Part shown: positions 4,076 to 26,755 of the stretch, in pieces | Numbering within the stretch: the first letter of the stretch is position 1 | Layout: the number at the start of each line of letters is the position of its first letter | Assembly (NCBI GenBank): GCA_045562535.1 | Contig: JBJKVP010000008.1 | Span: 21,180 to 85,179 of the forward strand | Origin: Dehalococcoidia bacterium | GTDB lineage: Bacteria > Chloroflexota > Dehalococcoidia > UBA6926 | Reading direction: 5' to 3' | Length of the DNA stretch: 64,000 nt | Notes under the pieces: generated by a model | The model's database searches: none | Told to the model about the DNA's origin: nothing | The model's input: the letters and a program-made list of their open reading frames with translations, nothing else | Position numbers and translations under genes: made by a program

Positions 4076-5209
4076 ATGCGATTAACAATCTCAGGGATAA
4101 AAGCCGATGTTGGTTCTATTGGAGGGCATACTGAACCTACCATAGAAATGCTGGATAAAGTAAAAAGTAATGTCGCTCAAGCTATTTCCAGTGGACTTAT
4201 AATTGATGGTTTCGTGTTTCACGTAGGAGACGATATTGCGATTGTGATGACCCATACGAAAGGGAAAGACAACGAGGAAATCCATCAATTTGCTTGGGAT
4301 AGCTTTCTTGATGCTACAGCAATAGCTCAAGAATTCGGGCTTTATGGGGCAGGGCAAGATCTACTGGTCGACGCTCCTTCTGGAAATGTTAGGGGTGCTG
4401 GACCTGGAGTAGCAGAAATTGAGTTCGAGCATGATCCCCAGAAGGGCAACGACACAAGACCCGCCGAGTCTTTTAACGTATTCGCAGCGGATAAGTGTGG
4501 CCCCGGTGCATACAACTTACCGATATTCTTAGGTTTCGCGGATCCTATGTATTGTGGCGGCTTAATGCTTCCTAAAATGATCAATGGTTTCAAATTCCGA
4601 ATTATTGACATGAATAATACAGATGGCGACAGCATAATAGAGCTAAACGCACCAGAGGATTACTATAAATTAACAGTCCTCTTGAGAGACAACGAACGAT
4701 TTGGAATAGAGAGAATATCATCCCGTACCTATGAAGACCAAGACTCTGTTGCTATTTCAGCACAGAGACTTCATAACATAGCCGGGACATATACTGGTAA
4801 AGATGATCCAATAGCAATAGTCCGAAATCAAGGCATTTTCCCAGCTCCCGAAGAGCTAGTATCTCCGTTTGCCAAGGCTCACTATATTGGTGGAGATGCT
4901 CGAGGTTCTCACGTTATGCCTTTAATGCCCGTACCAATGAATACACCGGTTACAGGAATCTACTGCTTACCAATTGTTGAGTGTTTAGGTTTCTCGATCA
5001 GTGCAGAAGGCAAATTCTCAAATCATTACGTTGACTTTTTTGATAACCCTGCTTGGGACCTTACGAGGATGAAAGCACAGGAGAAAGCAATGCATATGAG
5101 AGATCAAGGTTGGTCAGGGCCCGCTATGTTACCGTACTCCGAATTGGAATACAGTGGCTTTAGAAACATTGTTGAGGGACTCGAGGCACAATTCGAAATT
5201 TCAGATTGA
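4076..5209 (+). CDS. fbp: fructose-1,6-bisphosphate aldolase/phosphatase (class V FBPase)
   Basis: 377 aa. The N-terminus MRLTISGIKADVGSIGGHT is diagnostic of the bifunctional FBP aldolase/phosphatase family. GGGGGAGGA SD upstream. Confidence 0.9.
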   Translation: MRLTISGIKADVGSIGGHTEPTIEMLDKVKSNVAQAISSGLIIDGFVFHVGDDIAIVMTHTKGKDNEEIHQFAWDSFLDATAIAQEFGLYGAGQDLLVDAPSGNVRGAGPGVAEIEFEHDPQKGNDTRPAESFNVFAADKCGPGAYNLPIFLGFADPMYCGGLMLPKMINGFKFRIIDMNNTDGDSIIELNAPEDYYKLTVLLRDNERFGIERISSRTYEDQDSVAISAQRLHNIAGTYTGKDDPIAIVRNQGIFPAPEELVSPFAKAHYIGGDARGSHVMPLMPVPMNTPVTGIYCLPIVECLGFSISAEGKFSNHYVDFFDNPAWDLTRMKAQEKAMHMRDQGWSGPAMLPYSELEYSGFRNIVEGLEAQFEISD

Positions 5210-5296
5210 TTCTGGAGGTGCACCGTAGAAAATCAACAGCTTAAACTTCTAATTGCAACTAATAACAATGGGAAACTGGCAGAGTTAACCTCGCTT

Positions 5297-5839
5297 TTGA
5301 AAGACTCACATATCCAAGTTACCAGCCCTGGGTTAGAGAATATTGATATAGAAGTCGAAGAAAATGGATTTTCACTTAAAGAGAATGCATCGTTAAAAGC
5401 TAAGGAGTTTAACCGTGTTTCAGGACTGCCTTGTTTATCCGACGATTCCGGCCTATTTGTAAACTACCTTGATGGAAGACCAGGAATACATAGTGCCAGA
5501 TATGCTGGTATTAATGCTTCGGACCAAGATCTGGTAAATAAATTACTAAATGAACTTGACGGGGTAGAAGAATCAAAAAGAAACGCTTACTTTGAATGCG
5601 TAATTGCTATCATAGATAATAAAGGGGAAGAGTATTTTTTTTCTGGGAGATCTGAAGGTAAAATAACAAAACAACCGAAAGGAAATAATGGATTTGGGTA
5701 TGACCCAATATTCTTTGTTCCGAAATTTGATAAAACTATGGCTGAGTTGACAAAACCAGAAAAGAACGAGGTCAGTCACAGAAGCAAGGCGATGAAACAA
5801 GCCATTGAGTTTATAAACTCAATGGGTATCAATAGATAA
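5297..5839 (+). CDS. rdgB: non-canonical purine NTP pyrophosphatase (RdgB/HAM1 family); the true start is probably upstream of the listed TTG
   Basis: FGYDPIF and SHR motifs. The conserved N-terminal strand and phosphate-binding motif LKLLIATNNNGKLAEL is encoded in frame at 5240-5296, with no ATG/GTG/TTG before it. Confidence 0.85.
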   Translation: MKDSHIQVTSPGLENIDIEVEENGFSLKENASLKAKEFNRVSGLPCLSDDSGLFVNYLDGRPGIHSARYAGINASDQDLVNKLLNELDGVEESKRNAYFECVIAIIDNKGEEYFFSGRSEGKITKQPKGNNGFGYDPIFFVPKFDKTMAELTKPEKNEVSHRSKAMKQAIEFINSMGINR

Positions 5840-6944: not shown

Positions 6945-7433
6945 ATGAATGACAAACTAAGTCATATGGACCCTAAAACTGGAGCTAAAATGGTAGATGT
7001 TAGTACTAAAGAAACTAGTGCGAGAGAAGCAGTTGCCAGAGGCAAAGTAATCGTTAACCAGAAGGTCATAAATGCCATAATGGAATCCAACAATCCCAAA
7101 GGCGACGTGCTTTCAACGGCCAAAATTGCTGGAATTATGTCCGCCAAAAATACTTCTTCCTTAATTCCGCTTTGTCATCCCATCAATTTATCGTTTATTG
7201 ATACACAGTTAAATATTAATAGCGATGAAAATTGGATCGAAATAGAGTCAACTGTGAGAACTACTGAAAAAACAGGTGTTGAAATGGAGGCTCTCACTGC
7301 AGTAAGTATTGCTGCGCTAACCGTATACGATATGTGCAAAGCCTTAGATAAAACCATGGTCATTGATGAAATTAGACTAATTAAAAAAACTGGCGGTGCT
7401 AGCGGAAACTACGAACGAAATAGTTCCAGCTGA
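6945..7433 (+). CDS. moaC: cyclic pyranopterin monophosphate synthase MoaC
   Basis: 162 aa. LIPLCHPI and TGVEMEALTA motifs. Follows moaA. Confidence 0.9.
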   Translation: MNDKLSHMDPKTGAKMVDVSTKETSAREAVARGKVIVNQKVINAIMESNNPKGDVLSTAKIAGIMSAKNTSSLIPLCHPINLSFIDTQLNINSDENWIEIESTVRTTEKTGVEMEALTAVSIAALTVYDMCKALDKTMVIDEIRLIKKTGGASGNYERNSSS

Positions 7434-12000: not shown

Positions 12001-13248
12001 TTATGGAAACCTCTTTATCCACTGGACACTTATATATGATCCGACGGCAAGTCCTAGGGCGTATACCCACCCATTCAATGCCAACGACGGAACGGCCGAG
12101 AAAAATGCCCCCAGTGTACATCCAAGGCCTAAGCCGGCCCCATAACCCATAATGGTCCCACCCACTATAGATTGTAGATATCTAACGGGTGATCTCGGTA
12201 TACGCAATTTAAATTCTCGAGCAAAAATTGCTGATGCAGCTGCACCAGCTACTATTCCTACATTTAAAAAGAACGTTTCAGTAAACCAACTACCGCCTTC
12301 TACTACTACGGCTGCACACGCACCTAAGCCATCCATACCTTTTAGATCAACTGGAGGGACGCCAAAAAGATTAACGAACGAAGTTGACCATCTTGATATT
12401 TCTCCAACAACTCCAAGAGGGTGGAACCTTATGAACAAAACGATATTAACAACAGCCAATATAATCCCGCCGACTATAGGGCTCCATTCTGTTCTAAAAA
12501 TGCTCTTCAAATTACCAGTTATTTCACCAATAGTACTCGTTGGAGTTTCTTCAACAGTTAACTTTTTTATCTCTGGCATGACAAAACCGGCAGTTACTCG
12601 TCTCTCTCTTGCTAAAGCAACGTAGAAGATCACTAAAAGTCCTACTGCCGTTACAAGCAATGCCCCTGAATATGTAATTTCCGCGGGAATCCATACTGCG
12701 ATTTCTTGGGAGATTAAATTATCCCACCACCAGTTCCATGTATTGTTAAGAAAGAATAACCCTACCATAACGCCCAATATGGCCACCCAGGAACCAACGT
12801 AGCCCTCGCCCATCCTGTAGAGTGAGCCAGAAACACAACCACCGGCTAAAACCATTCCAATACCAAATAAAATACCCGCGATTAATGTTGATAACCCTAC
12901 AGGAAGCACATGGGCATCACTCGGGAATGCACCAAACCCAGGGTTTGGCGACACCGTGCTCATTATCATTACAAATCCAACTGAAGATACGGCTAGCCCC
13001 ACCAATATGCCTTTTATCATTCTAGTCTGACCCAAAAGGAAAAAATCTCTAAACGCGGAAGTAAAACAAAACCTGCTGCGTTGTACTGTAACTCCAAATA
13101 CGACACCAACAACCCAATATATCGCTGCTATAGGTTGATCGGTCACAGATAGTATGACTACCAAGCCAGTTATAAAAATAATGGTTGTCCATACCCAAAA
13201 GGAGTAGTTATTGATTTTAAACCGATTTATATCAGTGATATTTTGCAT
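12001..13248 (-). CDS. yeeE: YeeE/YedE-family thiosulfate (sulfur/selenium compound) transporter
   Basis: 415 aa polytopic protein with duplicated halves carrying the conserved Cys motifs SRFCFTSAF, GGCVSGSLYR and LGLGCTLGAF. Confidence 0.85.
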   Translation of the reverse strand: MQNITDINRFKINNYSFWVWTTIIFITGLVVILSVTDQPIAAIYWVVGVVFGVTVQRSRFCFTSAFRDFFLLGQTRMIKGILVGLAVSSVGFVMIMSTVSPNPGFGAFPSDAHVLPVGLSTLIAGILFGIGMVLAGGCVSGSLYRMGEGYVGSWVAILGVMVGLFFLNNTWNWWWDNLISQEIAVWIPAEITYSGALLVTAVGLLVIFYVALARERRVTAGFVMPEIKKLTVEETPTSTIGEITGNLKSIFRTEWSPIVGGIILAVVNIVLFIRFHPLGVVGEISRWSTSFVNLFGVPPVDLKGMDGLGACAAVVVEGGSWFTETFFLNVGIVAGAAASAIFAREFKLRIPRSPVRYLQSIVGGTIMGYGAGLGLGCTLGAFFSAVPSLALNGWVYALGLAVGSYISVQWIKRFP

Positions 13249-13294
13249 GATCTTTCTTCTTTATTACACTCTGTCGCATCACAATTCATGTGTT

Positions 13295-13330
13295 AAAAAG
13301 GTACGCCCCCTAGCATAACATAGGGGGCGT
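13295..13330 (-). terminator. intra-operon intrinsic terminator between rhodanese and yeeE
   Basis: On the minus strand, a 10-bp stem ACGCCCCCTA/TAGGGGGCGT (13330-13321 / 13312-13303) is followed by ACCUUUUUAA. Confidence 0.6.
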
Positions 13331-13378
13331 AACCAGTTACCTAATATAAGGTAACTCTAGTGTGGCTAGCAATTTGAT

Positions 13379-14320
13379 TTAGGAATCAATAGGAGTATCT
13401 TCTCGATTTCCCCACTCAGTCCATGATCCATCGTACACAACGACGTTGTCATAACCTAAGAGGTCGCTCAGGACGAACCAACTATCTGTCGCTCTCACTG
13501 CTGTCTGACACAAAGTATAAATGTCTTGGTCAGTTCCTACCGCTGCAGCAGTATAAATCTTAGATAGCTCTTCAGCGCTCAAGAATGTCCCGTCTTCAGC
13601 ATGGTTGTTAGTCCACTCAACATGAACTGATTCAGGGATATGACCGCCTCTTTCTGCTCTGACATCACGGCCCGCATATTCATCGGCGCTTCTAGTATCT
13701 ACTACCAATTTAGTTGGATCTCCAATAGTTGCAAGGGTATCTTCCAAGGAAGCTACGAGACCAGGATTTGGCTCACCAGTAAATTCATATGAACTTGCCG
13801 ATATATTAGGTACATCGGTAGTAATTTCTTTACCTTCAGATTCCCAAAGAGCTATAGCACCATCCATCATTCTCGCATCTTCGTGACCATATACGTCAAG
13901 CGTCCATAGGAACCTTGTTGACCATAAATTTTTGATATGATCATATATGATAATAGTATCTGTAGACGATACACCCAAAGCGCTCAATTTAGCGGCTATA
14001 TCTCCCTCAGAAGGAATCACTCCTTTAACGCCATCTCTTTCTACTTGTAGTTCGGATTTATCATAGTTAATTGCCCCGGGAAGATGCCCTGCGGCATAGT
14101 CTTCACCTTTACGAATATCAATGATGACAACATTTTCATTATCCAAATTTTCATTAACCCAATCTGTGGAAACAAGTCGGGCAGTCGAAGCATATCCTCT
14201 ATCCTCAAGAGAAGCATCGGAAGCTACCTCGTTCCCTGCACATGCTCCAGTAATTAGCAATCCTAAAATTGCCAACCCGCCAAGGCTAATTTTTAAAACT
14301 TTACTCGAAAAAACCTTCAT
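13379..14320 (-). CDS. exported tandem-domain rhodanese (thiosulfate sulfurtransferase), lipoprotein
   Basis: Signal peptide with lipobox LITGAC, two rhodanese domains, catalytic loop CQTAVRA. Confidence 0.85.
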   Translation of the reverse strand: MKVFSSKVLKISLGGLAILGLLITGACAGNEVASDASLEDRGYASTARLVSTDWVNENLDNENVVIIDIRKGEDYAAGHLPGAINYDKSELQVERDGVKGVIPSEGDIAAKLSALGVSSTDTIIIYDHIKNLWSTRFLWTLDVYGHEDARMMDGAIALWESEGKEITTDVPNISASSYEFTGEPNPGLVASLEDTLATIGDPTKLVVDTRSADEYAGRDVRAERGGHIPESVHVEWTNNHAEDGTFLSAEELSKIYTAAAVGTDQDIYTLCQTAVRATDSWFVLSDLLGYDNVVVYDGSWTEWGNREDTPIDS

Positions 14321-14351
14321 TTTCTATGAACTCCCTCTATTTGTATTTTGT

Positions 14352-14588
14352 TTACTTAAATAAGTGAATTTTCCATTCCCCAGCTGCAACTTCTTCTATT
14401 TCACAACCATATCCACGTTTCATCGCTTCAGGCGGAATAGTTGACAGGGCAGGGGGATGATCCGTAAGAACATCAAGCGTTTGAGGCGCAGGATCTCTTC
14501 CATCAAGTTCTTTATTTGTGCGAATCATTGGATACGGGCATATTTCACCTCTGACATCCAGTAATTCAACGGTTAGTTCATCTGACAT
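14352..14588 (-). CDS. tusA: TusA/YedF-like sulfurtransferase
   Basis: 78 aa with the CPYP (CPxP) active-site motif. GAGGAGAG SD. Confidence 0.85.
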   Translation of the reverse strand: MSDELTVELLDVRGEICPYPMIRTNKELDGRDPAPQTLDVLTDHPPALSTIPPEAMKRGYGCEIEEVAAGEWKIHLFK

Positions 14589-14926: not shown

Positions 14927-16123
14927 ATGCCACTCTATCGTATATTTATAATTTGTTTTGCGTTACTAATAACCAGTTGCTCAACCACTTCATCCTCTAT
15001 AACCACCAGCCTTCCTGAGGAAGGAATTCATTTAGAACCGGTTTTCCAAGAGTTATCTAAAACCAATATTGTTTATATGGAACCCGCTCCAGGAATACCC
15101 AATAAATTATTCCTAGCCGTCAAAACCGGAGAAATCGTTATTATCGATACTGCTACTACAAGCGTTCCAGAAACTGAGTTTCTAGATATATCTGAAAAAG
15201 TGAATTCAACAGGTAACGAAGAAGGTTTACTAGGGTTTACTTTCGACAATCACTATATGGATAATCGTTTTTTCTACGTATATTATTCTGCCAGCAAACC
15301 CCGAAGAAGTGTAATATCAAGATTTACCGCGGAAACAGATAACCTTCTTAAAGCCATACCTGGAAGTGAAAAAATCCTGCTCGAAGTTGAACAACCTTAT
15401 TCAAATCATAACGGCGGTCACTTGCAATTTGGTTTGGATGGATTCTTGTACATAGGTTTAGGAGATGGCGGCTCGGCCGGTGACCCATTAAACAACGGCC
15501 AAGACCTTTCAACATTGCTCGGCTCTATATTAAGAATTAACGTGCATACGGAAAATACACAAACTAGATACACAGTCCCTATGGATAATCCTTTTGCAAA
15601 CAACGTTGAGGGGTTTAGAGGCGAAATATGGGCCTATGGATTGAGAAACCCCTGGAAATTTAGTTTCGATACAAATTCAGGTACATTGTGGGCCGCCGAC
15701 GTTGGTCAAAACAAGTATGAAGAAATAAATTTAATAGTCAGGGGCGGGAATTATGGCTGGAATGAGATGGAAGGAAGCAGTTGCTACAATAATTTTTGGG
15801 AGATCTCCCAAAATGAAGACTGCCTAAAAGAGGAGTTTGTAGAGCCTATTTTTACCTATCCTCATGATGCTGGTAATTGCTCCGTTACCGGGGGATATAT
15901 TTATAGAGGATCACAAATAGAATATCTAAGAGGTTTATATATATATGCTGACTTCTGCAGTGGCAGAATATGGGCACTTGAACATGATTCAAAAGGCAAC
16001 GCTGTGAACACTCTTTTGATCGATTCAAACCTCGCGATTTCTAGCTTTGCAAAAGACAGCAAAAATGAACTCTACGTCATTTCTTACGACGGTGCTATAT
16101 ATAGAATGACTTCGAAAAGTTGA
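14927..16123 (+). CDS. PQQ-dependent sugar (glucose/sorbosone) dehydrogenase, lipoprotein
   Basis: Lipobox LLITSC. Beta-propeller motifs NHNGGHLQFG.DG.LYIGLGDGG and GLRNPW. Confidence 0.8.
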   Translation: MPLYRIFIICFALLITSCSTTSSSITTSLPEEGIHLEPVFQELSKTNIVYMEPAPGIPNKLFLAVKTGEIVIIDTATTSVPETEFLDISEKVNSTGNEEGLLGFTFDNHYMDNRFFYVYYSASKPRRSVISRFTAETDNLLKAIPGSEKILLEVEQPYSNHNGGHLQFGLDGFLYIGLGDGGSAGDPLNNGQDLSTLLGSILRINVHTENTQTRYTVPMDNPFANNVEGFRGEIWAYGLRNPWKFSFDTNSGTLWAADVGQNKYEEINLIVRGGNYGWNEMEGSSCYNNFWEISQNEDCLKEEFVEPIFTYPHDAGNCSVTGGYIYRGSQIEYLRGLYIYADFCSGRIWALEHDSKGNAVNTLLIDSNLAISSFAKDSKNELYVISYDGAIYRMTSKS

Positions 16124-16191
16124 ACGAAATTTTATTTTTGTTAGGATGAATCCATAGTTCAAGCTGATGTAAAAACCCAAAGGAGGTTATC

Positions 16192-16842
16192 ATGGGAACT
16201 ATGACATCAAATAAATTGGGAGGACTAGCACTGACTTTTGGCCCGTTATTAGCAGTACTAGCCTACCTAGCATCACCAGGCCAAGGCTTAATAGGTGGCC
16301 AGGTAGATTTTGCCGACCCTCAAGCAGGGATTGGAGTTCTATTGGCTAATGGAGGAATCGCTTCTATCACGAGCGCCCTTGCACCGATTGGACTAATAAT
16401 TTTGCTTCACGGTATAAATACATTAGTGGAGCAACTACGAACTGGTGAAGGCGGTAGCATAGCAGCACTAGGAAGAGTATTTCTTGTATTTGGAATAGTC
16501 GCATGGCTGGTAGGAAGTAGCTTTCAAGCAGCCATAGCTGGAGGCAATACAGGCGCAGCGGCCGGAGCCTTATACGCCGGATCGTTCGGTCTGAACGTCA
16601 CCGGAGGAATACTTTCAGGAGTGGCGTTCTTGCTCATCGGACTAGGTGTCTCCGCAAATGCAAATTTCAATAGAAATTTTGCCCTGGTGGCAGCCGCTGT
16701 TTCCGCAGTACTACTGGTTGTAAATATCGTTGTTGCAAACGATACCTCGATGCAACTAACACTTGCACCGGTCGTAGGGATTGGATTTATAGTTTTCACC
16801 GTTTGGTCGATTACACTCGGTCAAAAATTAGGCAAACTGTAG
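16192..16842 (+). CDS. hypothetical Gly/Ala-rich integral membrane protein
   Basis: 216 aa with about 6 hydrophobic segments. AAGGAGG SD. Confidence 0.5.
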   Translation: MGTMTSNKLGGLALTFGPLLAVLAYLASPGQGLIGGQVDFADPQAGIGVLLANGGIASITSALAPIGLIILLHGINTLVEQLRTGEGGSIAALGRVFLVFGIVAWLVGSSFQAAIAGGNTGAAAGALYAGSFGLNVTGGILSGVAFLLIGLGVSANANFNRNFALVAAAVSAVLLVVNIVVANDTSMQLTLAPVVGIGFIVFTVWSITLGQKLGKL

Positions 16843-16872
16843 TAGCTCCTTAGCATTGCAATGTTAAATAGT

Positions 16873-16912
16873 TAGAGGCCCTTAGTCGCATAAATAAGAT
16901 TTAGGGCCTCTA
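16873..16912 (+). terminator. hairpin after the membrane-protein gene
   Basis: TAGAGGCCCT (16873-16882) pairs with AGGGCCTCTA (16903-16912). Long loop, weak T tract. Confidence 0.45.
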
Positions 16913-16963
16913 ATATATTTTGACCCACTAAACTTTAAATAAAAAGTAAGTTGAGGTGTTCAA

Positions 16964-17797
16964 TTGGAAATAATACCTGTAGAACAAAGAGGCTACGCTC
17001 ATCCTGAACTCATCGCAGAAACAAGCTGGCTTGCGACTCATATTTCTGACGAAGATATTCGAATAATAGATGCTCGCTCTTCCGAAGATTACGTCGAGTC
17101 TCATATACCCGGAGCCGTAAATCTTAGCGGTTTTCGAGGTATTCCAAGAACGGAGTCAGGAGAACTTGGAGATCCAGAAATATTTTCAGAAAAAGTAAGT
17201 AACTTGGGAATAGGTAACAACACAACCGTTATTGTGTATGACACTCCAAGCCAAATGATGGGGACAGTCGCTTGGGCCTTCCTGTACTACGGCCACACTA
17301 AGACCAAAATTCTGGACGGCGGCATAAACAAGTGGATATCAGAGGGTAACGCGATCTCAAAAACCGTTCCGGAATATCCGAAAGCATCATTTAAGGCAGA
17401 GTTAATAAGTTCAATTTACTGTTCTTTAAACGATGCTAAAAAGGGAGCAACAGATACCAACACCGTTTTTTGGGATACGCGCAGTCTGGGAGAGTATGAA
17501 GGTTCTACTTCAATAGGGGAAACACCTCCCGGTCGGATCCCTGGGGCAATCCATTTAGAATGGGTCGAATTATTTGATAAAGAAACAAAAACATTAAAGA
17601 GTGCCGACGAATTAAATCATTTGCTACTTTCTAATGGTATTACTCCAGAAAAAATAGTGAACAGTTATTGACAGGGTGGTGCGCGGGCGGCGCTCGCGAC
17701 GATAGTGCTAAAAATCTTGGGTTATGAAAATGCTAGAACATATGCGGGTTCATATGGTCAGTGGGCCAAACAACCTGACACACAAATAGAAACGTAA
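16964..17797 (+). CDS. tandem-domain rhodanese with in-frame TGA (17669-17671) at the catalytic Cys position; candidate selenocysteine rhodanese
   Basis: The frame continues 42 codons past the TGA to TAA 17795-17797. SY-[TGA]-QGGARAA aligns with LCQTAVRAT of the paralogue, and the downstream LGYEN..Y.GS..W..DT.I is conserved. Confidence 0.7.
17680..17701 (+). promoter_or_regulatory. candidate bacterial SECIS hairpin
   Basis: Stem 17682-17688 / 17692-17698 (6 Watson-Crick pairs plus 1 G-U) with a G-rich apical loop, starting 9-10 nt after the TGA. 21 of 24 nt are G/C in an AT-rich gene. Confidence 0.5.
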
Positions 17798-17820: not shown

Positions 17821-17897
17821 TGGTGGGCGATACTGGGCTCAAACCAGTGACCTCTTGCATGTGAAGCAAGCGCTCTAACCGTCTGAGCTAACCACCC
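17821..17897 (-). tRNA. tRNA-Val (anticodon CAC), CCA encoded
   Basis: GGGTGGTTAGCTCAGACGGTTAGAGC..., anticodon stem CTTGC/GCAAG, loop TTCACAT. Confidence 0.9.
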
Positions 17898-17904
17898 TTG
17901 GGTT

Positions 17905-17980
17905 TGGTGGCAACGATAGGATTTGAACCTACGACCTAGCGCTTATGAAGCGCCCGCTCTAACCACTGAGCTACGTTGCC
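17905..17980 (-). tRNA. tRNA with CAT anticodon (elongator Met or Ile2), CCA encoded
   Basis: GGCAACGTAGCTCAGTGGTTAGAGC..., loop TTCATAA. G1-C72 pair and no GGG/CCC anticodon stem, so it is not an initiator. Confidence 0.85.
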
Positions 17981-26140: not shown

Positions 26141-26755
26141 TTGACGAATAAAATTAAACTTCCAGTAACAGTTTGGTACGATTATATTTGACCTTGGTGT
26201 TATATCGGCCAGGATCGGGTCGAACAACTAAAAAATGACTTTGATGTGGAAATCGATTATAGAGCCTTTTTCCTCAGGCCTGACCTACCACCAGAAGGTA
26301 TGCCTAGACCTGAAAAATACAACAATCCTAACAGCCCCGTTCAAAGGGCAGCCGAAGAAGCAGGTATATTGATGAACCGACCTGCAATAGTTCCATACAC
26401 TCGTCTTGCGCTTGAGGCAACTGAGGCGGCTAAATCTCTTGGACAAGGAGAGAAGTTTCATGAACTAGCCTACGCTTCCTACTGGGAGGATGGTACGGAC
26501 TTAGGAAAAATTGATAACCTAAAACCCATTGTAGAAGCCGCTGAATTAGACTGGGACACTGTAAAACAACATATAGAACAGCGAACCTTCAAAGAAGATG
26601 TTGAAAAGCAATATGAAGAGGCACTCAAAGTAGGAGTGACAGGCATTCCAGCTTATGTCATAGGAAACTATTTCTTTATGGGAGCTCAGCCTTATGAGGT
26701 ATTCAAACAAGTTGCTGAAAAAGCCCTAAAACACATGGAAGAGAATCAAGATTAG
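26141..26755 (+). CDS. DsbA/FrnE-like dithiol oxidoreductase with in-frame TGA (26189-26191) at the first Cys of CPWC; candidate selenoprotein
   Basis: TTG 26141 follows an AGGAAG SD. Translation reads MTNKIKLPVTVWYDYI-[TGA]-PWCYIGQDRVEQL, continuous with the listed ORF 26246-26755. FrnE-type motif W.D..CPWCYIG. Confidence 0.65.
26205..26223 (+). promoter_or_regulatory. candidate SECIS hairpin of the FrnE-like gene
   Basis: UCGGCC (26205-26210) pairs with GGUCGA (26218-26223); 7-nt loop AGGAUCG. The stem starts 14 nt after the TGA. Confidence 0.35.

Follow-up and report, generated by a model that had tools for sequence, protein, structure and literature searches.

How does a sulfurtransferase gene encode a working enzyme when the codon at its catalytic cysteine is TGA? 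The question is raised by a rhodanese-type gene in a 64,000-nucleotide stretch of contig JBJKVP010000008.1 (assembly GCA_045562535.1) from a Dehalococcoidia bacterium; the whole of this stretch was analysed and is referred to as the window. The open reading frame (ORF) listed at 16964-17671 starts with TTG, at a codon position where a close relative (locus L001) has ATG (MQIIPVEQ), and runs for 235 codons until it is terminated by a TGA at 17669-17671. As the initial annotation had pointed out, the frame then stays open for 41 sense codons, or 42 with the stop, until a TAA at 17795-17797. The comparisons described here indicate that the gene very probably encodes a two-domain cytoplasmic rhodanese in which the catalytic Cys is replaced by selenocysteine (Sec) at this UGA, directed by a hairpin in the coding region just downstream.

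The read-through product of 277 amino acids resembles solved rhodaneses along nearly its whole length. The Pfam domain Rhodanese (PF00581) is found in it twice (E=1.6e-34), and full-length alignments to solved two-domain rhodaneses, 1uar, 1e0c, and 1urh among them, have E values from 1e-34 to 1e-17. Residues 10-269 align with the Thermus thermophilus rhodanese (1uar) and residues 12-276 with Azotobacter vinelandii RhdA (1e0c). The TGA had been placed at the active-site Cys, and it does share a column with the catalytic Cys of 1uar (CRIAERS) and RhdA (CQTHHRS), as well as with the Cys of TLCQTAVRAT in a paralogue encoded in the window at 13379-14320. The two-domain TST/MST class (COG2897) is defined by two tandem rhodanese domains, which the gene has, and by a nucleophilic Cys that opens a six-residue active-site loop. 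In the column of that Cys stands the TGA, and the loop that follows it, QGGARA, is intact. Provided that the TGA is read as Sec, the chemistry is conserved and the predicted protein belongs to the class as its Sec variant. The enzyme lacks a signal peptide and is predicted to be a cytoplasmic thiosulfate-type sulfurtransferase that would carry its sulfur on selenium. Residues 220-251 also matched TALE repeats in the PDB weakly, which was put down to a chance likeness in composition.

The placement of the TGA is shared by a broad set of relatives. A search for related proteins gave 799 homologues, and among the best 120, which were examined, 118 carry Cys and reach the full length of about 280 amino acids, and two clusters end at residue 235. 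In the 91%-identical cluster (L001-L008), the DNA has the TGA in the identical place, followed by the same 41-codon frame; TGA and tail are likewise present in the 71%-identical cluster (L022-L025). Scanning metagenome contigs with the protein as query revealed seven further loci of 57-89% identity, in each of which the TGA falls on the Cys column and the tail is conserved. Overall, these searches by protein, which take no account of RNA structure, recovered 10 distinct TGA forms of 57-91% identity. A DNA-pattern scan covered 185,579 species genomes, one per species, with only the non-synonymous bases of the hairpin fixed. It returned 21 matches, 18 of which are genuine Sec-form rhodaneses: 16 from metagenome-assembled genomes (MAGs) of Dehalococcoidia/Chloroflexi, several of them closed chromosomes, and two from Candidatus Binatia, with a locus G+C content of 40-65% (43% in the gene studied here, 40% in the window). 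Altogether, the TGA is invariant and the downstream frame intact in 27 distinct related sequences across 57-91% protein identity and 40-65% locus G+C. With no truncation or frameshift in the orthologues, the Sec-rhodanese interpretation of the initial annotation is supported.

The tail beyond the TGA has the features of translated sequence. Relative to L001, the closest relative, it contains 17 synonymous and six non-synonymous codon differences, third positions hold 21 of the 29 substitutions, and similarity stops at the second stop codon. Because change is mostly synonymous and similarity ends at a stop codon, the tail is probably translated. It is conserved across all Sec and Cys forms compared, and the orthologues stop at the same place or one to four codons later, with TAA, TAG, or TGA. 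Conservation of these codons had been proposed as a check, and judging from the pattern of change they are under purifying selection. The nucleotide divergence from L001 is uneven, at 29/126 nt (23%) in the tail and 58/705 nt (8%) in the preceding 705 nt. This excess is mainly synonymous, and a recombination breakpoint near the TGA may be its source.

The hairpin that begins 10 nt past the TGA is contained in the codons for A-R-A-A-L-A. Folding confirmed all seven pairs that had been claimed: 17682-17698, 17683-17697, 17684-17696, 17685-17695, 17686-17694 (a G.U pair), 17687-17693, and 17688-17692. Two extra pairs around a bulged A17699 lengthen the structure to 17680-17701. The stretch at 17678-17701 is G or C at 21 of its 24 nt, as had been noted, in a gene of much lower G+C content. 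Codon choice is unusual: nine of 14 third positions are G or C, where 4.1 would be expected (p=0.004), and the codons used for the stem are rare in the window (GCG, 15% of Ala; CGG, 7% of Arg; CTC, 6% of Leu).

Comparison among the TGA forms points to selection on the RNA itself. All 10 distinct TGA sequences from the protein-based searches contain the block GCGCG(A/G)GCG(G/T)CGCTCGCGAC. Counted from the U of UGA, stem positions 24 and 27, which the scanning pattern left free, are G and C, respectively, in 27/27 sequences, and the equally free positions 15 and 30 are G in 26/27 and 25/27. Position 18, which pairs with U26, is A or G in all 27, and the first loop base, position 21, is G in 26. 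At the flanking synonymous sites all four bases are in use across the 27 sequences. The third positions of the hairpin codons have an entropy of 0.37 bit, whereas 20 other conserved multi-codon columns have 1.63 bit (Mann-Whitney p=4e-4). With the register fixed, 24 Sec forms have folding free energies between -7.8 and -10.7 kcal/mol, compared with -0.6 to -0.7 kcal/mol for three Cys forms. On these comparisons, the hairpin is under RNA-level selection that is specific to the TGA forms.

A further line of comparison comes from a published selenoprotein family. In 2005, Zhang, Fomenko, and Gladyshev described "Rhodanese-related sulfurtransferase" (COG2897, three sequences) as a new Sargasso Sea selenoprotein family with a predicted selenocysteine insertion sequence (SECIS) element (PMC1088965), and a study of Global Ocean Sampling (GOS) data by Zhang and Gladyshev in 2008 added further rhodanese selenoproteins in the rows cd01449 and COG2897 (PMC2398784). 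The statement in the initial annotation that such proteins had been predicted from marine metagenomes is thus right. Its statement that none is known to be characterised experimentally also holds, as a 2026 review still places "Rhodanese-like form 4, UxxG" among predicted families that are not experimentally verified (PMC13188914). The DNA of the three Sargasso Sea genes was taken from the supplement of PMC1088965. These genes share the hairpin register (nt 14-20 with nt 24-30) and the GGC loop with the window gene, and between the two the pairs differ by compensatory changes: 14:30 from C-G to U-A, 15:29 from G-C to A-U, and 18:26 from G.U to U-A. When they are added to the alignment, 98% of its cells pair, three of the seven pairs show double changes, and the covariation score is 0.194, a value reached by 0 of 500 shuffles, versus 0.105 for shuffles. 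Slid registers give 21-65% pairing in the same alignment. The comparative evidence that hairpin and TGA, as predicted here, are more than chance is decisive.

The Cys-containing forms give a view of the hairpin where the TGA is gone. The nearest, P0002 and P0003, are 62-63% identical and come from Tara and other marine assemblies. The TGA lies on the Cys column of these and of hundreds of Cys homologues, an alignment that had been suggested as a test. P0002 and P0003 have the identical peptide CQGGARASLAT, encoded with the codons GCC AGG GC(G/T) TCA CTC GCG, which abolish the 5' arm of the hairpin. In their loci (L019-L021), the 3' arm is retained (CTCGCGAC) and the 5' arm is lost. A rough neighbour-joining tree, which carries no support values, puts both proteins inside the Sec clade. 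They look like recent secondary replacements of Sec by Cys with a decaying 5' arm of the SECIS element, a history that fits both tree and codons.

The window holds a second gene with a TGA at a catalytic Cys. A DsbA/FrnE-like thiol oxidoreductase (Table 1) reads VWYDYI-U-PWCYIGQDRVE versus IWSDIACPWCYIGKRRFE in Deinococcus FrnE (5cnw). Its TGA is conserved in L001 (12403) and L022 (about 15306), and the DsbA-like selenoproteins from the Sargasso Sea have a matching motif (DYIuPWCY). In the mechanical ORF listing this gene begins downstream, at GTG 26246 (169 aa), and the called genes of relatives also begin past the TGA. With this gene in the window, the genome would therefore recode TGA at at least two loci. 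A possible SECIS element was also noted in it, with nt 17-22 pairing with nt 30-35 from the U of UGA around a 7-nt loop, AGGAUCG. The window was further searched for TGA read-through with both flanks open, for TGA just upstream of called ORFs, and in intergenic gaps, and only the rhodanese and the DsbA-like gene proved credible. The TGA of fbp was considered as a read-through candidate and rejected; the region 4076-5839 (+ strand) was judged to hold two same-frame genes, the second being the ORF at 5297-5839 (TTG, 180 aa). As for the wider group, BSepDB, which admits only species with at least two Sec-pathway genes, has two MAGs of Dehalococcoidia among its ten richest bacteria, with 46 and 49 selenoprotein genes (PMC13326102). 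The second TGA-at-Cys gene, the use of TGA as an ordinary stop, and the literature on the class argue that this genome has the Sec machinery.

The anatomy of the locus suggests that the UGA would be decoded by the route that is standard in bacteria. SelB-GTP carrying Sec-tRNA(Sec) would be recruited by the coding-region hairpin 10 nt downstream, and its binding would allow Sec insertion to outcompete release factor 2. Translation would then proceed to the TAA at 17795. On the enzyme, the sulfur in transfer would be bound to U236 as a Se-S adduct, in place of a Cys persulfide. We infer SelB binding and selenium insertion, and likewise the substrate and a catalytic advantage of Sec.

Several observations weigh against a Sec-encoding gene and have to be set beside the evidence for it. 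Of the 27 sequences, 18 came through a pattern that fixes the non-synonymous hairpin bases, and Sec forms with another SECIS element would be missed by it. The folding energy of the hairpin is unexceptional against dinucleotide shuffles (z=0.43) and gives p=0.07 against synonymous resampling from window codon usage; it was rejected as evidence, being uninformative for a short GC-rich hairpin in coding sequence. Inside the Dehalococcoidia-type clade there is no true covariation, just a change from G.U to A-U, because the stem hardly varies there. The compensatory changes stem from just the three Sargasso sequences, so the independent compensatory events are few. A scan of the window at Rfam gathering thresholds found five tRNAs only and no SECIS family. 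A tRNA-Sec was not found by ARAGORN in the window or in 29 related loci, and selA, selB, and selD were not found in the window, in about 10 kb past one of its ends (the ThiI side), or in the related loci searched. Among 20 window ORFs of a size compatible with SelA, SelB, or SelD, an NCBIfam scan found housekeeping genes only. Searching these related loci by tblastn with E. coli SelD and SelB queries gave one match, in L046, which was rejected as SelB since it is TypA/BipA. Finally, every member of the rhodanese selenoprotein family is so far a predicted selenoprotein.

Some of these points would also suit a UGA that is recoded to a residue other than Sec, either by a hairpin-dependent route, such as one in which a SelB-type factor and a tRNA-Sec-like tRNA(Cys) bring in Cys, or by near-cognate read-through with Trp, Cys, or Arg. 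SECIS-dependent systems for Cys recoding have been proposed, and Cys is fully functional at the catalytic position in most homologues. The Sec machinery was not seen in the window and the related loci searched, and selenium insertion is itself a prediction, both of which fit this explanation too. It is nevertheless improbable. Homology of family, Sec column, and hairpin links the gene to selenoprotein genes that were found by Sec/Cys-pair criteria, a second classic selenoprotein family (DsbA-like, UxxC) is present in the same window, and Dehalococcoidia MAGs are documented as Sec users. A rhodanese with Trp or Arg in the nucleophile position would be inactive, and near-cognate read-through has no need of a conserved hairpin with a conserved G-containing loop.

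A genuine stop would leave either a pseudogene or a truncated protein of 235 residues without the catalytic loop, with the 41 codons as a decaying remnant. Gene callers and GenBank do annotate the 235-aa form, and TGA is an ordinary stop in this genome. Against this stand the same TGA in 27 distinct sequences down to 57% identity, a tail that keeps its frame and changes mostly synonymously (17 versus 6), and a similarity that ends exactly at the second stop; moreover, the truncated product would be without its nucleophile and its whole active-site loop. The comparative data make a genuine stop highly improbable and, as they are read here, effectively refute it. An altered genetic code with a sense UGA, such as code 4 (Trp) or code 25 (Gly), has nothing in its favour besides the in-frame TGA itself and retains almost no probability. 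TGA is the stop of 10 of the 51 window ORFs, including fbp (5207-5209) and moaC (7431-7433), and in five orthologues it both interrupts and terminates the Sec-rhodanese ORF. A reassigned code is therefore excluded; it is already refuted by stop-codon usage. In addition, a conserved in-frame TGA occurs in only two genes of the 64 kb, both times at a catalytic Cys position. The initial annotation had argued for local recoding from the stops of fbp and moaC, and this conclusion stands. Decoding of the UGA as Sec thus remains the preferred explanation, and the features that belong to it are collected in Table 1 together with neighbouring genes.

Table 1. Positions of the predicted Sec-rhodanese gene, its parts, and related genes in the window.
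Feature	Position	Strand	Basis or remark
Shine-Dalgarno-like GAGGTG, 5 nt before the TTG start	16953..16958	+	Sequence reading
Two-domain rhodanese-type sulfurtransferase coding sequence, 277 aa with predicted Sec at residue 236, plus TAA	16964..17797	+	ORF reading, Pfam, structure alignments
In-frame TGA, predicted Sec codon U236, in place of the catalytic Cys of the loop U-Q-G-G-A-R-A	17669..17671	+	Cys-column alignment
41 post-TGA codons (QGGARAALATIVLKILGYENARTYAGSYGQWAKQPDTQIET)	17672..17794	+	Encode the remaining catalytic-loop residues and the C-terminal portion of the catalytic rhodanese domain
Core SECIS-like hairpin, 7 bp CGCGGGC/GCUCGCG (one G.U), apical loop GGC	17682..17698	+	Folding and comparison
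True stop TAA	17795..17797	+	Sequence reading; orthologue stops
YeeE/YedE-type transporter	12001-13248	-	Best NCBIfam matches, each under the cut-off: "selenium metabolism membrane protein YedE/FdhT"; thiosulfate transporter TsuA
Two-domain Cys rhodanese, lipoprotein-like signal peptide	13379-14320	-	Sulfur/selenium trafficking cluster 12001-14588
TusA-family protein	14352-14588	-	Sulfur/selenium trafficking cluster 12001-14588
DsbA/FrnE-like thiol oxidoreductase, second selenoprotein candidate	26141 (TTG)-26755	+	TGA 26189-26191 at the first Cys of CPWC

The neighbourhood of the gene hints at sulfur and selenium trafficking. In the low-GC clade, the Sec-rhodanese lies about 2.4-5 kb from a YeeE/YedE-type transporter, a lipoprotein-like rhodanese, and TusA, and synteny of this upstream cluster is kept in both close relatives with contigs long enough to include it, partly in L001 and fully in L022. 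The linkage was not seen at the more distant Sec-form loci; being confined to the low-GC clade, it is therefore not a feature of the whole family. One could imagine that the Sec-rhodanese is more than a faster sulfurtransferase, namely a dedicated chalcogen carrier, holding a Se-S or Se-Se adduct and feeding a relay of selenium or sulfur in Dehalococcoidia of the oxic ocean, a role that is possible and yet unlikely. If it were true, the relay in the low-GC clade would be linked to the YeeE/YedE-type transporter, TusA, and the lipoprotein rhodanese, and the near-invariance of the hairpin over 40-65% G+C would reflect a family-specific SelB module or the sensing of selenium supply.

Divergence along this part of the window is mosaic. 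Compared with L022, the GSDH-like dehydrogenase at 14927-16123, a 216-aa membrane protein at 16192-16842, and the Sec-rhodanese are 68-71% identical, and the flanking YeeE, TusA, hyp133, acyltransferase, SufB, and DsbA-like genes are 90-96% identical. Compared with L001, the acyltransferase is 75% identical and the rest 89-98%. Such mosaic divergence over 14927-17797 suggests recombination or cassette exchange within the population. The 216-aa protein (+ strand) is a Gly/Ala-rich predicted membrane protein with no match in Pfam or NCBIfam, and its gene lies directly upstream of the Sec-rhodanese throughout the low-GC clade (L001-L004, L010, L011, L022-L025). Between the two genes, at about 16874-16911, is an inverted repeat, AGAGGCCC...GGGCCTCT. 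On the other side, starting 24 nt past the TAA, tRNA-Val(CAC) and tRNA-Met(CAT) at 17821-17980 (- strand) run towards the rhodanese gene and converge with its 3' end. The tRNA-Met is kept there in every close relative scanned (L001, L011, L022, L023, L041), and ARAGORN reports the tRNA-Val only in the L022/L023/L041 cluster.

The practical consequence of the finding is one of annotation. The GenBank entry MFL2640696.1 ("MAG: sulfurtransferase [Dehalococcoidia bacterium]") is the product cut to 235 aa, which means that the active site is lost. Public gene callers end every other TGA form that was recovered as a called protein at 235 aa, and the DsbA-like gene 8.5 kb away is mis-called as well. 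Correcting such calls changes the sulfur and redox metabolism that is inferred for abundant marine Dehalococcoidia. Nothing is overturned, and a specialist in selenoproteomes would expect a Sec-rhodanese here. The gene is not new in kind but a mis-annotated member of a family that was predicted in 2005 and is still uncharacterised. A prediction made from three short reads is extended to a coherent subfamily that 18 species-level genomes carry, including several closed chromosomes. The value lies in the annotation and in a well-defined, genome-anchored subfamily and SECIS element for experiments; with this anchoring and a SECIS that is unusually well defined, the family becomes experimentally tractable.

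Among the closest known systems are, for the hairpin, the SECIS elements of E. coli fdhF and fdnG. There, too, a hairpin in the coding region stands directly 3' of the UGA, with a spacer of about 10-11 nt and a small apical loop that contains G. The two have no sequence similarity. The stem in the window is short and GC-rich, with 7 bp. Its loop has 3 nt (GGC or GUC), or 5 nt when the closing C-G pair is taken as open, and nothing in the hairpin evidently corresponds to the bulged U of the fdhF element.

The enzyme itself is best compared with the Cys-type sulfurtransferases, namely RhdA (1e0c), 1uar, E. coli SseA (1urh), and bovine rhodanese (1rhd). With these it shares an inactive N-terminal and a catalytic C-terminal rhodanese domain, and a six-residue active-site loop that is followed by a helix. 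Its loop, U-Q-G-G-A-R-A, is closer to the RhdA/TST type (CQTHHRS, CRxGxR) than to the MST type (CGSGVTA). The nucleophile is predicted to be Sec in the window enzyme and is Cys in the others, and with Sec as nucleophile, expression would therefore need recoding of UGA and a hairpin in the coding region.

The nearest relatives in this respect are the Sargasso Sea and GOS rhodanese selenoproteins, with which the window protein shares the marine habitat, a predicted Sec in place of the catalytic Cys of the C-terminal domain, in the motif TY-U-Q-x-G-x-R-A-A (UxxG), and many Cys homologues. In the Sargasso genes Sec stands in the same column, within the motif TY-u-Q-[AG]-G-[VI]-R-A-A-H, and loop and helix read GG(I/V)RAAH(A/V) there versus GGARAALA here. 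With Cys as a placeholder for U in both sequences, BLASTP aligns the window protein to AACY01110644 at about 33% identity over the commonly covered region (E=3e-31), and the placeholders fall on each other. The marks by which this family is recognised are found in the window gene: an in-frame TGA on the Cys of homologues (a Sec/Cys pair), homology to published members whose Sec column coincides with its own, and, as described in PMC1088965, a bacterial SECIS-like stem-loop directly after the TGA whose small apical loop includes G. Because the proteins are clearly homologous yet distant, the Dehalococcoidia-type forms make up a separate subfamily of this known predicted family. On the sequence comparisons, the window gene is a member of that mainly Dehalococcoidia subfamily, which also includes Candidatus Binatia and has a hairpin sequence of its own.

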